Shown: positions 3,659-9,414 of the stretch, in pieces
Position numbering within the stretch: the first letter of the stretch is position 1
Layout of the letters: every line of letters starts with the position of its first letter
Assembly (NCBI GenBank): GCA_048882045.1
Contig: JBHLRZ010000045.1
Coordinates: 1 to 22,388 of the forward strand
Length of the DNA: 22,388 nucleotides
Direction of reading: 5' to 3'
Origin: Candidatus Thorarchaeota archaeon
GTDB lineage: Archaea > Asgardarchaeota > Thorarchaeia > Thorarchaeales > Thorarchaeaceae
Translations under genes and position numbers: made by a program
Notes under the pieces: generated by a model
Seen by the model: the letters and a program-made list of their open reading frames with translations, nothing else
The model's database searches: none
Told to the model about the DNA's origin: nothing

Positions 3659-5395
3659 CTACTTATGAGCGAATGATGCTTTCACTGGATCACCAGTGTC
3701 GTAAATCTTGGCAAATCCAACCCTTTCGAACTGTAGAAATGTACCTTCCTTCAGTTCAGTAATTCCTGGTTCGCCCAATCCGGTTTCAACCGACCCATCA
3801 ATCATTGTCAGCTCCATAGGTATGGACTTCTCTTTTGGAATCCAGTGGATTATAGAACCTCCAACCTTTCTAATTTCATCAACATCATCGCTATGATACA
3901 ACAACTCAACAGGTTTGAGACCCGTTACCGTGAAGTTTGCGTAATCCTTCAGGCGGACTAGACTACCTTTCTTCATTTTCTCAATATCATTCTGCGTGAG
4001 ACCAACTATGCCAGACCCATCGCGCAGACCAAGTGGAATCGTTCTGACCCCTTGTTTTGGAAAGTCCGGGTGGACGGGAACCTCAGCTATTGTAATGTTA
4101 TGGGGAACACCCGATGTTTCAGTCCATTCTGGGTCTCTCACGAAGAATGCTCTGGGCGCATATGCATCTCTCAGTTTTCTGTTCTCGGAATAAACTGACT
4201 TCATGGATATGGTTATGTCAACAACGCTGAGTCCAAGGTCCAACATCACTTTACGAAGAGCCCTCTGGTCAATCCCTCGCTTCTTCAACGATTGCATACT
4301 CCATGTCCGTGGGTCATCCCAACCTGTGTACTTGCCAGAAAGGACCTCAGCACGCGACTTACTTTTACTCAGTTTTGCATCCGCGAACTTGAGGCGACCA
4401 TAATAGAGGAGCTCCGGTTCCCTCCATCCATAGATACGCCAGATGTGTTGTTCGATCTTTCCCTCTTTCACAAGGTCCTTACCACGTACTATATGGGATA
4501 TTCCTAGTTCATGATCATCAATACCCCAAGAATACTCGAGTAAAGGCCATACTCGATACTTTGAACCAACTCGAGGATGTTCTGTTTCAGAAATTCTTAG
4601 AATCACATGATCCCGCATTGCAGGGTCAGGATCAGTCATGCCTGTCTTTAGACGGACTGCTGCAGCTCTTTCAGGATATGTCCCGTCAAGCATCTTCTCC
4701 CATCTAGCTAGATTGTCTTCGACTGGGAGACCCTGACATAGACAAGGGATACCCTTTGCCTTGTGTTCAGTCCTCCAGATGTTTGCGTCACAGTCACACA
4801 CATATGCCTCTTTCTTCTTAATCAAGTCTACAGCATAGTCATAGAAGAGCTGGAGGCGGTCTGACTTGTAGATGGTCTTGTGAACCTTTACATCCAGATA
4901 GTCAAGACTTTCCGGAATGAGGTCGAAAGCATCAGGCTCAACGACCTTCTCAGCAGAACCAATCGTGTCATCAAAAACCAATATGAGCTCCCCTTTATAC
5001 CGCTTGACATAATAATCATTCAGAATCACCATCCTGGAGTTGCCTACATGAAGCGGGCCTGATGGAAACGGAGCCAAGCGCATTACAATCTTTTTCCACT
5101 TGTCTGCATTGGGCAACTCGGGAGGTTCCTTTTCCTCAGTCGGTTCAATCACGTCTGGGATTTCGAAGAGTTCAGGAGCAATTTGTTTTAGTTCAGTAAT
5201 CTGATCATCAAGTGGAATTTTGCTGACTTCATTGACGATCTTTTCGACTAGTTTCTTCACTTCTTCAGCCTTTGGTCGAAGATCAGCCCTAGAACCGAGG
5301 ATTGCACTCATGACAGATTTGGCACTAGGTTTCCCTTCATACTTGACCGCATTATCCAATACAGCCTTTCGAACCTCGAGTTCAAGATTGTCCAT
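3659..5395 (-). CDS. gltX: Glutamyl-tRNA synthetase (archaeal type)
   Basis: RLAPFPSGPLHVGN (HIGH-like), FDDT, YVCDC, DHELGISHIVRGKD, KLSKS (KMSKS), GWDDPR, QFERVGF. Start set at ATG 5395 (MDNLE) because GGAGCTGA lies just upstream. Confidence 0.96.
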   Translation of the reverse strand: MDNLELEVRKAVLDNAVKYEGKPSAKSVMSAILGSRADLRPKAEEVKKLVEKIVNEVSKIPLDDQITELKQIAPELFEIPDVIEPTEEKEPPELPNADKWKKIVMRLAPFPSGPLHVGNSRMVILNDYYVKRYKGELILVFDDTIGSAEKVVEPDAFDLIPESLDYLDVKVHKTIYKSDRLQLFYDYAVDLIKKKEAYVCDCDANIWRTEHKAKGIPCLCQGLPVEDNLARWEKMLDGTYPERAAAVRLKTGMTDPDPAMRDHVILRISETEHPRVGSKYRVWPLLEYSWGIDDHELGISHIVRGKDLVKEGKIEQHIWRIYGWREPELLYYGRLKFADAKLSKSKSRAEVLSGKYTGWDDPRTWSMQSLKKRGIDQRALRKVMLDLGLSVVDITISMKSVYSENRKLRDAYAPRAFFVRDPEWTETSGVPHNITIAEVPVHPDFPKQGVRTIPLGLRDGSGIVGLTQNDIEKMKKGSLVRLKDYANFTVTGLKPVELLYHSDDVDEIRKVGGSIIHWIPKEKSIPMELTMIDGSVETGLGEPGITELKEGTFLQFERVGFAKIYDTGDPVKASFAHK

Positions 5396-5533
5396 TGAAT
5401 CAGCTCCATTTGGATTGCCGACCCACTTCATTTAACTTTGACTGGCTGAACGGAAAAAAGTTCACCACGGAGATGCTTATATGGCAATTTTGGGGGTTCG
5501 TAATAAGAGAACATTGTCTTAGGTGCGCGAATC

Positions 5534-5825: not shown

Positions 5826-6605
5826 TCAAGGTAGATTGATGAAATATAATCCCATAAATGCAATTGCAATCATTACCAAAAGTGACGCATTTCCAACCAA
5901 CCAGTTCCGGGCATTCTTTTGACTGATTTTGATAGGACCAAGTGGCTTTAGACCTGTTGGAGCTTTGTGATATGGATCTGCTGCTATCCAGAGGATTTCG
6001 AGTGGATTAGAATCACTCGGAAATATGTCCAAGTAGAGATGAGAAGCATATCCCAACAGGTATAACGCAGCAATATAGTACTCTACTTTAGCCCCTATAT
6101 CACCTATACTTCCAGCATTGGCCAGAGCAGTTGCTATATTAATCATAGTTGTGAGTATTACAAGAAGGGGAAGTATAACTGAATGGAAAATGATGTTCCG
6201 ATGTCTTGAGATTCCGAGAAACGGGATGTCCCAATCAGGCATGAGTGCACCAGCTACAGTGATGACCCCTCCAATAAAGACAGAGATGCCGCCTATGACT
6301 GCAATACCTGTTGACAGTTGATAGAAAACTGCGCCAGCAAGTGAGCCGATGCAGAAGGCGACAAAGAACATGGCACTCACTGCACTTCGATTACTCGTGG
6401 TCCTTGCATGCATGTCCTTGTTTGGAGCTTTCCAATAGAGAATTGGTACAGATACAACACTCACTGCAATACCCCCTGCAACATAATAGAATAGGAGGTC
6501 AGTTAGTGATCCTGCGGTGTCTTCAAAAACTGTGAAAGCATAGATGAGTGTATAGAGCCCAACGAACAATGCAAAAGCAAACATAATGTGTGAAAGTCGA
6601 TTCAT
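5826..6605 (-). CDS. Membrane-bound metal-dependent hydrolase (YdjM-like)
   Basis: Multiple hydrophobic segments plus the family's metal-ligand motifs: N-terminal SH, PDWD, HR...FHS, GYASHLYLD. Confidence 0.78.
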   Translation of the reverse strand: MNRLSHIMFAFALFVGLYTLIYAFTVFEDTAGSLTDLLFYYVAGGIAVSVVSVPILYWKAPNKDMHARTTSNRSAVSAMFFVAFCIGSLAGAVFYQLSTGIAVIGGISVFIGGVITVAGALMPDWDIPFLGISRHRNIIFHSVILPLLVILTTMINIATALANAGSIGDIGAKVEYYIAALYLLGYASHLYLDIFPSDSNPLEILWIAADPYHKAPTGLKPLGPIKISQKNARNWLVGNASLLVMIAIAFMGLYFINLP

Positions 6606-6653: not shown

Positions 6654-8966
6654 TTATTTCTTTCCTCTCAGACCTGGAAACCAGTATTGGGTACTTTTGG
6701 AGTAGCTCTTCTGTTCCTTCGCGACTCCGTTTGATATCAGAAGCTCCAATGCGTTTCTTACTCTTTCCTCTTTCCAGCCAAGGTTGACTACTGCGTCTTC
6801 AATACTCAGGCGACCATCTTTCGTTGCGGCCAGGCTGAGTATCTCTTGGGGATCATCAGTCAAGGCGACTGGAACGAATTCAACCATGCGAGCTCCACCT
6901 TCCATGGTTGATAGTCCCTGAATCAGTCCCTCCTTTTCCATATCTTCTAAGAGGTCTTCTATCTCATCCGAATGAGTTCCCCATCCACTCTCATCCAAAC
7001 GTACCAAGAGTTCAGAGAATAGCATAATTCCGCCAAACTGCTTTGAATCGGCTGCCATCCTTAGGATATCGCGCCTCAAACCATCTGTTCTATCATCGCG
7101 CTTGAGTAATCTTTTAACCATCCCTGACTTCTTTTTGGCTTCTGCAATCCAAGACTCCGGCTCATAACCAAGTTCTGTCAAGAGCTCGACAAGGGCGGTT
7201 CGATAAGCGGGGATACTCAAAATAGTGCTCCCCTGATTCTCAAAGACTTCCCAGAGTCGTTCTCTAATCGAGTCCAAGCGTCTCGATCTATCTACTAATT
7301 CATCGAGTCGAACTGCAATCTGGTCTTCATGTGAGAGGGAATTGACAATTATTGGGATGGCCACATTACTTGTGGAAGTCAAGGTAAATTCAATCGTCTT
7401 ATCGAAGTATCCAGGGGCTACTACAACTCCTTCATAGTTGCTCATCGGTAATGAAACAACAATAGACCCTTTACTGTCAGATTTGGCTTGTAGAACTCCC
7501 AAGTCTAGTTCAGCATTTTCTAATGGTCTTCCGGCTTCATCCTGAATTTGAAACCTAACCCTACATAATGACTCGTCCGAGGTCACAGTCAGTTTTCTTC
7601 GCTTCAACTTGATCTTAGTTTCAGGAATTCCTGAGATGAGATCTTCAAGCTCTTTGATTAGTGGACGTTTGACTAGTCCATCTCCAAGGAGTGCTTTAGA
7701 ACCTTCCAGAATAGCTTCACGAGCCTCTTTAACTGACAACAAGTTATGAGTTTGAGACGAATCTCTGAGGAACTTCCTTAGAGCTACATCATTGTTTGCA
7801 CGTTCGCTAAGTAATGAAGCGACTGCACCGATTGCTCTGGTTGGAGTTTCAAACTCGTCAACGAAATCTCGCCGGCGACTCACTTTATCCCCCGTACTAA
7901 CCATCTGTGAGAGTGTGTAAATCTCGATTCCAAGTTGTCCTTTCTTCGAGAATCCAGCGAGGAAAAAGGGAATCATTATGAGAGTGCCTTTTGCATCTGA
8001 GTTTACAACAGAAAGTGGAACAGACAAGTCAGTCAGACTAGAAATCTGTTCCTGAATAGTTTTGTTAGCTGCTTGAACCTCGGCAAAGAAACCATCACGC
8101 TCCACTAGAAGTTCACGTGCTGAATCTTGAATATCAGCGAGGATTTCGTTTCGTTTGTCCTCATCTCGTTTGAGAGCCATCTTGCGAGATTCAATTGTAT
8201 TCCTAATTTCCTTGATTCTTGCTTTCTTCTTGTCTGAGGATGAAGTTTCTACAACCTTTAGTTCGGATTCCAGTTCGACAATCTGTTTCTCTAGAGATGC
8301 AATCCTTAGGTTCAATCGGGAAAGTGTTGGTGCAGATGTAGTTTCCTTGACACCTACTGTGTCCTCGACTCTAGTATTGATTATTTCTACGAGCTCAGAA
8401 ATAAGGTCATCAACTGAACTAATCACATCAACAGTTTCTCGCAGCAACTCTATAGATCTCATGAACTCCTTCTCTCCAAGGAGTCCGGATAGAGGAACTG
8501 CAAAATTCTCTATGCTGTTTCCCAGAGGTCTCTCGAGGAGCTGAGCTACTCCTCTTGACATCAGGCCACTCATCAGACCTAAGAGTGTTGAACGACTCGT
8601 ATTACGGAATGGAGTGATGATCTTTCGAGCACACTTGATTCCTTCCAGAAGATCACCAGTTCTCAAATCATCAAATGCAGAAGTGGCGTCGAACTTGCTA
8701 TGATGAGTCAATGATTCACTAGTAAGACCAAACAGCTCAACAAGAAAACTACGATTCTCAAATGGAGCAGGGACAATTACTACAGGCAGGTAACATTTGA
8801 GCATAAACTCGAGATCTCTACCATCTCTCTGCTCAATTGCTCGCATCACCATTCCAGCCATTACATAGTCTTCTGGGACAGCCTGTTCCATTGGCTGGCC
8901 TCCTGACAACTGGAGTCGCCTCGTAGCTGTTGCAGGTACAATGAGATTCCAGCGTTCAAAGTCCAT
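6654..8966 (-). CDS. Multidomain protein: N-terminal alpha/beta region with inserted coiled coil, beta-sandwich (carboxypeptidase-regulatory-like) domain, C-terminal EAP30/Vps22 (ESCRT-II)-like tandem winged helices
   Basis: C-terminus (PAYRTALVELLTELGYEP...GGIMLFSELL...FVPVALTDDPQEILSLA...NLGWKEERVRNALELLISNG...YWFPGL) follows the Snf8/Vps22 pattern. Heptad region about 8030-8400. QDEAGRPLENA...SDSKG...APGY beta-sandwich about 7340-7570. Start is ATG 8966 or ATG 8891 (GGAGG SD); the track's 9209 start overlaps the divergent gene. Confidence 0.8.
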   Translation of the reverse strand: MDFERWNLIVPATATRRLQLSGGQPMEQAVPEDYVMAGMVMRAIEQRDGRDLEFMLKCYLPVVIVPAPFENRSFLVELFGLTSESLTHHSKFDATSAFDDLRTGDLLEGIKCARKIITPFRNTSRSTLLGLMSGLMSRGVAQLLERPLGNSIENFAVPLSGLLGEKEFMRSIELLRETVDVISSVDDLISELVEIINTRVEDTVGVKETTSAPTLSRLNLRIASLEKQIVELESELKVVETSSSDKKKARIKEIRNTIESRKMALKRDEDKRNEILADIQDSARELLVERDGFFAEVQAANKTIQEQISSLTDLSVPLSVVNSDAKGTLIMIPFFLAGFSKKGQLGIEIYTLSQMVSTGDKVSRRRDFVDEFETPTRAIGAVASLLSERANNDVALRKFLRDSSQTHNLLSVKEAREAILEGSKALLGDGLVKRPLIKELEDLISGIPETKIKLKRRKLTVTSDESLCRVRFQIQDEAGRPLENAELDLGVLQAKSDSKGSIVVSLPMSNYEGVVVAPGYFDKTIEFTLTSTSNVAIPIIVNSLSHEDQIAVRLDELVDRSRRLDSIRERLWEVFENQGSTILSIPAYRTALVELLTELGYEPESWIAEAKKKSGMVKRLLKRDDRTDGLRRDILRMAADSKQFGGIMLFSELLVRLDESGWGTHSDEIEDLLEDMEKEGLIQGLSTMEGGARMVEFVPVALTDDPQEILSLAATKDGRLSIEDAVVNLGWKEERVRNALELLISNGVAKEQKSYSKSTQYWFPGLRGKK

Positions 8967-9066
8967 GGTGATACCTATGTTGAAGTCATGGGAACGCTTT
9001 TCATACTTTCTTATGGAGAATCCATTATCAATTTGAACGCGCCTGACAACCTGAGGAGTGAACGAA

Positions 9067-9414
9067 GTGAAAAGAGATGATCCAATTCTTCTACCAATCT
9101 GTAGTAAATGCAGGAAATACAAAGGAGTCGGATCATGCAACTGTAACGGTTCATCTGAGATGAAGAGCATTGTTACCAAATGTAGCCTGTGTGACAACGC
9201 AACTATCATCGAATGTGTGAGATGTGGTCAAGGATTCTGTCAGGTTCATGGATGGGAGGAAATTACAGGGCGCCTAACAAAATGGGACCAACGAATCGGA
9301 ACCTGTACAATCTGCAATCAATCAGTTTGCGAGAACTGCTGGCTTCTCGAGGATGATGGAAAAATAACATGTTTAGTCCATCATGAAGGACCTCCACATG
9401 ACTTAGAAGAGTGA
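9067..9414 (+). CDS. Zinc-finger protein with B-box-like Cys/His motifs
   Basis: CSKC...CNC, CSLC...CVRC...FCQVH, CTIC...VCENC...CLVHH. GTG 9067 lies 8 nt after GAGGAG; GTG 9058 is an alternative start. Confidence 0.78.
   Translation: MKRDDPILLPICSKCRKYKGVGSCNCNGSSEMKSIVTKCSLCDNATIIECVRCGQGFCQVHGWEEITGRLTKWDQRIGTCTICNQSVCENCWLLEDDGKITCLVHHEGPPHDLEE

Follow-up and report, generated by a model that had tools for sequence, protein, structure and literature searches.

The window analysed here is a stretch of 22,388 nucleotides (positions 1 to 22,388 of contig JBHLRZ010000045.1, assembly GCA_048882045.1) from a Candidatus Thorarchaeota archaeon. On its minus strand, the gene at 6654-8966 encodes a protein of 770 amino acids (aa), called here the long Vps22, which consists of four units in the order N-terminal module (N-module), basic linker, transthyretin-like β-sandwich and a complete Vps22/Snf8 (EAP30) unit of the kind found in ESCRT-II (number II of the endosomal sorting complexes required for transport). 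The open frame spans 6654-9209, and the start was assigned to the ATG at 8966 because the orthologues begin at a conserved M-D-[LI], their N-termini sharing M-D-[LI]-x-x-x-x-L-I-V-P at the position of this ATG, and because the upstream open frames in the orthologous loci are short (2-93 codons; 36 loci were checked for both). An earlier note on this DNA, made from the sequence alone, had placed a ~770-aa gene at the same coordinates and had described it as a fusion, and our results showed that it is a single real gene and that the fusion is genuine. The long Vps22 was matched over its full length, at 43-90% identity, by more than 160 proteins that have 731-849 aa and come from independent samples; nearly all of these are from Thorarchaeota, and every named one is labelled "hypothetical". 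The protein is encoded at 60 loci in species-representative genomes, two of them in chromosome-titled records (CP070658.1 and CP070761.1), and no internal stop codon was present in any of the genome matches. The coordinates are collected in Table 1.

Table 1. Coordinates of the long Vps22 gene, its parts, its neighbours and its longin-fused relatives
Feature	Residues	Coordinates	Strand	Basis and remarks
Whole gene, long Vps22 paralogue	770 aa + stop	6654..8966	(-)	Open reading frame (ORF); start from orthologue N-termini; homologues
Head, first part, order β-β-β-α-β-β-β-α-α-β-α	1-160	8487..8966	(-)	AlphaFold2, predicted local distance difference test (pLDDT) 80-95
Antiparallel coiled-coil hairpin in head	165-314; helices 165-240, 247-314	8025..8474	(-)	
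Head, second part, strands after hairpin, motif IPFxxAGFSKKG	316-372	7851..8021	(-)	AlphaFold2
Four-helix bundle, end of N-module	377-446	7629..7838	(-)	AlphaFold2, pLDDT >90
Basic linker, ...KIKLKRRKL...	447-467	7566..7628	(-)	Low confidence, pLDDT <50 at 456-465
Transthyretin-like / CarboxypepD_reg β-sandwich	468-543	7338..7565	(-)	
Complete Vps22/Snf8 (EAP30) module	546-770	6657..7331	(-)	phmmer, profile, Foldseek, hhalign
Cys-rich (B-box-like) zinc-finger protein, possible partner	118 aa	9058..9414	(+)	Head-to-head with the gene, 91 bp
Coiled-coil protein, downstream of Arf-like GTPase	197 aa	11552-12145	(+)	
YdjM-like membrane protein		5826-6605	(-)	
133-aa protein	133 aa	5428-5829	(-)	
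GluRS		3659-5431	(-)	
Longin-fused relatives, other Asgard families		L094 3327-5453; L095 1955-4066; L096 3193-5238; L100 2216-4174		

The C-terminal Vps22 unit

The C-terminal unit is laid out as a helical domain (~546-621), a first winged helix (wH1, ~626-697), a second winged helix (wH2, ~699-766) and the terminal YWFPGL. In a phmmer search against all sequences of the PDB, residues 552-766 paired with residues 28-239 of the 258 of human SNF8 (E 5e-9), and yeast Vps22 was matched at E 1e-5. The SNF8 alignment set FENQGSTILSIPAYR against FASKHKQEIRKNPEFR, VPVALTDD against VPAELNMD and YWFPGL against YWLPAL, thus reproducing the pairings by eye on which the Snf8/Vps22 likeness of the last ~230 aa had first been proposed. 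With a family profile built from 24 orthologous C-termini, the PDB matches rose to E 5.4e-18 for human SNF8 and E 2.6e-10 for yeast Vps22, while no Vps36 was found at E up to 1 and the next matches were spurious (E >1e-3); among them no generic winged-helix regulator, which the earlier note had named as the competing assignment, approached SNF8/Vps22.

Structural comparison also placed the C-terminus with EAP30, the first three Foldseek ranks being taken by 3cuq_A (E 1.2e-7), 2zme_A and 1u5t_A and the Vps36 chains 2zme_B and 3cuq_B ranking under these Vps22 chains at 6e-5 to 6e-4. The Pfam model PF04157 (EAP30) matched over profile positions 30-214 of 219 at E 1.5e-5 with 25.2 bits, 1.6 bits below its gathering cut-off of 26.8 bits, and a precomputed match to it is present in several of the orthologues. 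Aligned by hhalign with Asgard Vps22 proteins from outside Thorarchaeota, the unit was covered over 223 columns, which is its whole length (E 3e-40), and the motifs FxPVxLxxD, GWxxER and [YW][YWF]FPGL were common to the long form and canonical Vps22. The Vps22 unit was also the most conserved part of the protein, with 44-87% identity to the window protein among the orthologues compared with 24-85% for the β-sandwich and 22-72% for the N-module, a sign of strong purifying selection on it. Judged from alignments and the predicted model, residues 546-766 are a genuine and complete Vps22 homologue, full-length with its predicted helical domain and both winged helices, and the profile and Foldseek results showed that it is closer to Vps22 than to Vps36.

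The modules ahead of the Vps22 unit

The AlphaFold2 model of the full-length protein had a mean pLDDT of 82, and that of residues 1-460 alone had a pLDDT of 89.7 and a predicted template modelling score (pTM) of 0.79. In the full-length model, the N-terminal domain interrupted by a coiled coil and the β-sandwich, both of which had been read from the letters alone, were seen ahead of the Vps22 unit. The N-module of ~450 aa is composed of an α/β head, a hairpin inserted into it and a four-helix bundle. P11, Q28, P31, F54 and G130 are invariant in the first part of the head, for which Pfam and PDB sequence searches gave no match. The hairpin consists of two helices of ~70 residues each with motifs that face each other, the invariant R217-L218-x2-R221 on one helix and A264-x3-D268 on the other, which also bears the near-invariant R261 and R267. 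In the second part of the head P333 and G338 are invariant, and this stretch is conserved in the longin-fused relatives too, and in other Asgard families the N-module profile matched the four-helix bundle. The basic character of the linker is kept in the family consensus, and the predicted fold of residues 468-543 is the seven-strand β-sandwich of carboxypeptidase regulatory domains (PF13620).

The head was compared with two known domains. No PH/GLUE domain was matched by Pfam in the long Vps22 family, and the order of strands and helices in the head differs from that of PH domains. The head profile aligned with the longin domains of the fused relatives at an hhalign probability of 0.1%, and a longin assignment of the head thus found no support at the sequence level; against the PDB, this profile gave nothing below E 1. 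The structural match lists for the N-module were taken up by matches to the hairpin. For the whole N-module, Pfam searches on 28 members and a profile search of the PDB gave only coiled-coil noise beyond its own family, phmmer over 1.84 billion representatives gave 31 matches, all of the same family or its fragments, and a profile word-search found the own family only. The ESM Atlas returned only unnamed archaeal clusters at 0.86-0.91, which serve as leads only.

A second paralogue beside the ordinary ESCRT set

No ORF of the window reached the Pfam cut-off for Vps25, Snf7 or Vps4, and no vps25, ESCRT-III or vps4 gene was found within 8 kb of the long form in 59 orthologous loci, in agreement with the earlier placing of the gene outside an ESCRT cluster. 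The accompanying statement that ESCRT partners were missing is true of the window and does not extend to the lineage, as related genomes carry an ordinary ESCRT cluster, which is here interrupted where a contig ends. Of the 18 genomes searched from the same genus, each had an EAP30 match in a frame of 155-275 aa, 17 of these frames being 252-275 aa long, and 13 also had a long-form match among those listed. In one of the related genomes (G001), the cluster runs in the order zinc (Zn)/steadiness box (SB) protein (536 aa), Snf7, Vps4, Vps25 (PF05871, 54 bits) and short Vps22, which agrees with the genes ThorAB25_08990-09030 used by Hatano et al. 2022 (PMC9192718). In the genome of the window itself, the cluster on contig C46 (21096-22235) ends 139 codons into vps4, and contig C47 starts (1-183) in a gene whose G001 counterpart is located past vps22; the rest of vps4, vps25 and short vps22 therefore falls in the assembly gap between these contigs, and the apparent lack of Vps25 and short Vps22 was put down to assembly and not to biology. 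Since the lineage also has a short Vps22 in a cluster with Vps25, Snf7 and Vps4, the long Vps22 is a second paralogue that accompanies a normal ESCRT set.

No further copy of its N- or C-terminal parts was detected in the same genome by tblastn, and the only stand-alone close relatives of the C-terminal unit were fragments cut by contig ends. A third EAP30-like match (C2 69362-71446, a 694-aa frame; L012 5362-7446) was rejected as MCM, of which only the C-terminal winged helix matches. This winged helix gave a recurrent weak PF04157 match (E ~1e-3 to 1e-4) in frames of ~695 aa in the same and related genomes, and it is a false lead for the counting of EAP30 paralogues.

The two Thorarchaeota forms differ in what they share with other Vps22 proteins. 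The cluster Vps22 (ThorAB25_09030 in Hatano et al. 2022; KXH75178.1 in Makarova et al. 2024) is of the same lineage as the long form and has the same wH1-wH2 core; unlike the long form, it has ~252-275 aa, adjoins vps25 and has an N-terminus annotated as a steadiness box. In Makarova et al. 2024 (PMC10936438), Asgard Vps22 is described as "fused to an SB", and residues 1-70 of the Thorarchaeota protein are given in Table S3 as Vps28 N-terminal/steadiness box. By hhalign, the alignment of the cluster Vps22 with other Asgard Vps22 was confined to wH1-wH2 (151 columns), and that with the long form spanned 145 columns (E 2e-21, 34% identity). These alignment spans, together with Table S3, indicated that the ancestral helical domain is retained in the long form and is not apparent in the cluster copy. 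The long form matches Asgard Vps22 (240-260 aa; asCOG cog.002769, Makarova et al. 2024) over its whole length, as it does Vps22/SNF8/EAP30 (PF04157; 3CUQ_A, 2ZME_A, 1U5T_A) across residues 546-766 with the aromatic-FPGL end; it differs from known Vps22 in ~545 extra N-terminal residues (the head-hairpin-bundle module and the β-sandwich), in being encoded away from the ESCRT cluster, in occurring as a second copy beside another Vps22 of the same genome, and in one conserved residue. Where yeast Vps22 has D214, the aligned residue of the long form is invariably Gln (Q752), and both canonical Asgard groups have Asp.

In a maximum-likelihood tree of Asgard Vps22, which contains no eukaryotic sequences, the long form and the cluster form each made a clade with support of 100/99, and because each clade holds a copy from the sister family represented by the genome G019, both paralogues predate the split from that family. 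The position of the two forms among Asgard Vps22 was a polytomy; constraining them together cost 0.35 log-likelihood units (p-AU, the approximately unbiased test, 0.48), and a duplication at the level of Thorarchaeota is a possible source of the long form on this evidence.

Distribution of the long form and its N-module

A search of 400 Asgard genomes with the N-module profile recovered the module from 74 of 85 in the window's family and from G019, the sole genome searched of the second family of the order. The G019 orthologue has 805 aa and an EAP30 score of 70 bits, with the same architecture of N-module, CarboxypepD_reg domain and a Vps22 unit ending in WWFPAL. In another Asgard family (G023), a protein of 794 aa also joins an N-module and CarboxypepD_reg to a Vps22-like end with WWFPAL, and it aligned with the long form by hhalign at E 4e-28 over 601 columns.

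Weaker relatives of the N-module were detected in eight further Asgard families by this genome-level profile search, which is more sensitive than phmmer or the word-search. Some are stand-alone proteins of ~450-550 aa, such as L097 (385 columns by hhalign, E 2.5e-6, probability 89%). Others are fusions of 650-710 aa in which a first longin domain of the Fuz/Mon1/Hps1 type (PF19036, 29.2 bits, above the cut-off) stands ahead of the N-module region, with matches to its strand motif and helical bundle (hhalign E 5e-12, probability 97.5%). Like the long form, these proteins have the hairpin, the IPFxxAG strand motif and the four-helix bundle; unlike it, they are without the β-sandwich and the Vps22 unit. 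The genes neighbouring the distant relatives were uninformative. In two of the loci (L094 and L095), a conserved uncharacterised gene of ~485 aa lies divergently upstream of the longin fusion.

Genomic neighbourhood

Upstream of the long Vps22 lie genes for a nucleotidyl transferase, a 240-aa protein, eS25, a coiled-coil protein, an Arf-like GTPase, a 375-aa protein and a zinc-finger protein, and divergent from this block are the long Vps22 and then a YdjM-like membrane protein, a 133-aa protein and GluRS. The order of the whole neighbourhood is kept in nearly all of the 59 Thorarchaeota loci. Because the housekeeping genes are equally syntenic, gene order alone shows no functional link.

The Arf-family GTPase carries an N-terminal extension. 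The zinc-finger gene was undetected by tblastn in about a dozen Thorarchaeota loci that hold the upstream region, and its product had no detectable paralogy with the Zn/SB protein of the ESCRT cluster. In the rearranged G019 locus, a zinc-finger orthologue of 256 aa (32% identity, E 1e-14), with a weak ANCHR-like B-box match, is still head-to-head with the long form, and the Arf-like GTPase, coiled-coil and eS25 genes remain within 4 kb despite the rearrangement; the G023 orthologue has unrelated neighbours.

The 197-aa coiled-coil protein (also at L025 4307-5107) ends in a very conserved segment of ~50 aa, …LTDLRFDYMRGYIPEDEYK…, and gave weak, sub-threshold matches to PF18822 (CdvA coiled-coil) at E 1.4e-3 in the window and 5.9e-5 in G019. 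This model is equated with the steadiness box by Makarova et al. 2024, and such a protein may connect the GTPase operon with proteins of the ESCRT-I type. On the other side, the YdjM-like, 133-aa and GluRS genes lie behind the long Vps22 in the same orientation, first after a gap of 48 bp and then with overlaps of 4 bp, an order found in nearly all Thorarchaeota loci, and a co-transcribed unit may join GluRS with the Vps22 paralogue.

Interpretation

We consider the chances even that the long Vps22 acts as an accessory subunit of the ESCRT-II type whose N-terminal parts would serve the recognition of a site or cargo, in analogy to Vps36. Like eukaryotic Vps36 (GLUE/PH and EAP30 core), the protein has a long N-terminal region before a tandem winged-helix core and stands beside a short Vps22; unlike Vps36, it has no detected PH/GLUE domain and its profile found Vps22, not Vps36, at E <1. 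The likeness to Vps36 is thus one of analogy, and membership of Vps36 is not supported. According to Hatano et al. 2022 (PMC9192718), Thorarchaeota have no ubiquitin and no Vps36 homologue, Asgard Vps22 self-interacts, and Vps22 homodimers replace the missing Vps36. In the mechanism that we propose, the Vps22 unit would dimerise with a second copy of itself or with a different EAP30 protein, dock Vps25, or do both, in the manner of Vps22 and Vps36 in the Y-shaped ESCRT-II, and the N-module and β-sandwich would recognise a site, cargo or membrane. The result would be a second, ubiquitin-independent entry point for ESCRT-III/Vps4 in organisms lacking ubiquitin. This proposal is supported by the homology and completeness of the Vps22 unit, its alignment with other Asgard Vps22 from end to end, the strong purifying selection on it, its shared motifs, the coexistence with a full ESCRT set in related genomes, the same architecture in G019 and G023 and the findings of Hatano et al. 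2022 on ubiquitin, Vps36 and Vps22 self-interaction.

Several observations weigh against such a role. The gene was never found in an ESCRT cluster, and the head fold is without an assignment, so that no targeting activity can be named. No long form was found, with the full-length profile too, in five genomes that are 97-99% complete (genus g27, 3/3; G334; G340) and in which Vps25 and a short Vps22 are encoded next to each other. Because these genomes retain ESCRT-II in its absence, the long form is accessory and not needed for ESCRT-II, and it is dispensable in some lineages. In addition, if D214 of yeast Vps22 contacts Arg83 of Vps25, the change from Asp to Gln may have altered the docking of Vps25. 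The earlier note was right about a true Vps22 homologue in a real fusion, and needs correcting in that the protein is a second paralogue and not the ESCRT-II of the lineage; its "alternative ESCRT-II adaptor" with targeting modules of its own is a plausible proposal.

The change at the D214 position and the absence of the long form from genomes keeping ESCRT-II would also fit the main rival, itself rather unlikely, in which the Vps22 scaffold was re-purposed, independently of ESCRT-III, in a trafficking or signalling module of longin proteins and Arf-like small GTPases. The tandem winged helices would then serve only for dimerisation or docking, and the partners would be the longin-containing neighbour, the Arf-like GTPase and the zinc-finger protein. 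This rival draws on the divergent zinc-finger, 375-aa and Arf-family GTPase neighbours, whose order recurs in nearly all 59 Thorarchaeota loci, on the head-to-head zinc-finger gene and the nearby GTPase and coiled-coil genes of G019, and on the fusion of N-module relatives behind a longin domain of the Fuz/Mon1/Hps1 type, which is typical of GTPase exchange factors. The order may however be merely inherited, since the genes for GluRS, eS25 and the nucleotidyl transferase are syntenic to the same extent. In G023 the orthologue stands among unrelated genes, and the Vps22 unit retains all family motifs and the helical domain under strong constraint. Compared with this, a chromosome- or nucleic-acid-associated protein is highly improbable. 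In that reading the globular head with its long antiparallel coiled coil and the tandem winged helices would resemble SMC-type arms with winged-helix pairs like those of ScpB/MukE, and the basic linker (447-467) would bind nucleic acid; it draws on structural matches, all weak, between the region of the hairpin and the arms of SMC and Smc5/6, and on the frequent binding of DNA by winged helices. An artefact of assembly or sequencing that fused two genes, for which only the unusual length and a spurious 81-codon upstream extension of the window ORF could be cited, is refuted by the full-length homologues from independent samples, the intact loci including the two chromosome-titled records, and the domain order kept in G019 and G023.

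It is conceivable, and on present evidence improbable, that a subset of Asgard archaea evolved an ESCRT-II with two paralogues independently, one Vps22 being short with a steadiness box and the other long, "Vps36-like" and equipped with a targeting module of its own. This N-module would belong to an undescribed family found across Asgard that is also joined to longin domains of the Fuz/Mon1 type, and it would physically connect scaffolds of the ESCRT-II type with small-GTPase trafficking in relatives of eukaryotes that lack ubiquitin.

The presence of a second, long protein with an EAP30 core contrasts with the single Vps22/36-like gene stated for Asgard genomes by Hatano et al. 2022, who placed the origin of Vps36 in eukaryogenesis. 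Diverse ESCRT-II paralogues and SB-fused Vps22 are reported by Makarova et al. 2024, and in the searched parts of its text and supplement the long architecture is not described; nor was a description of the long Vps22 as a second protein of the ESCRT-II type found in the literature searched. The long form occurs in most of the Thorarchaeota searched (74 of 85 family genomes) and extends to at least one further Asgard family; ubiquitin has not been found in the group concerned. Its new N-terminal module can be traced across Asgard lineages, both alone and fused to longin domains of the guanine nucleotide exchange factor type. If the long form enters ESCRT-II, an arrangement of a short and a long subunit can evolve in archaea, and the protein would offer a handle on what Asgard ESCRT recognises without ubiquitin.

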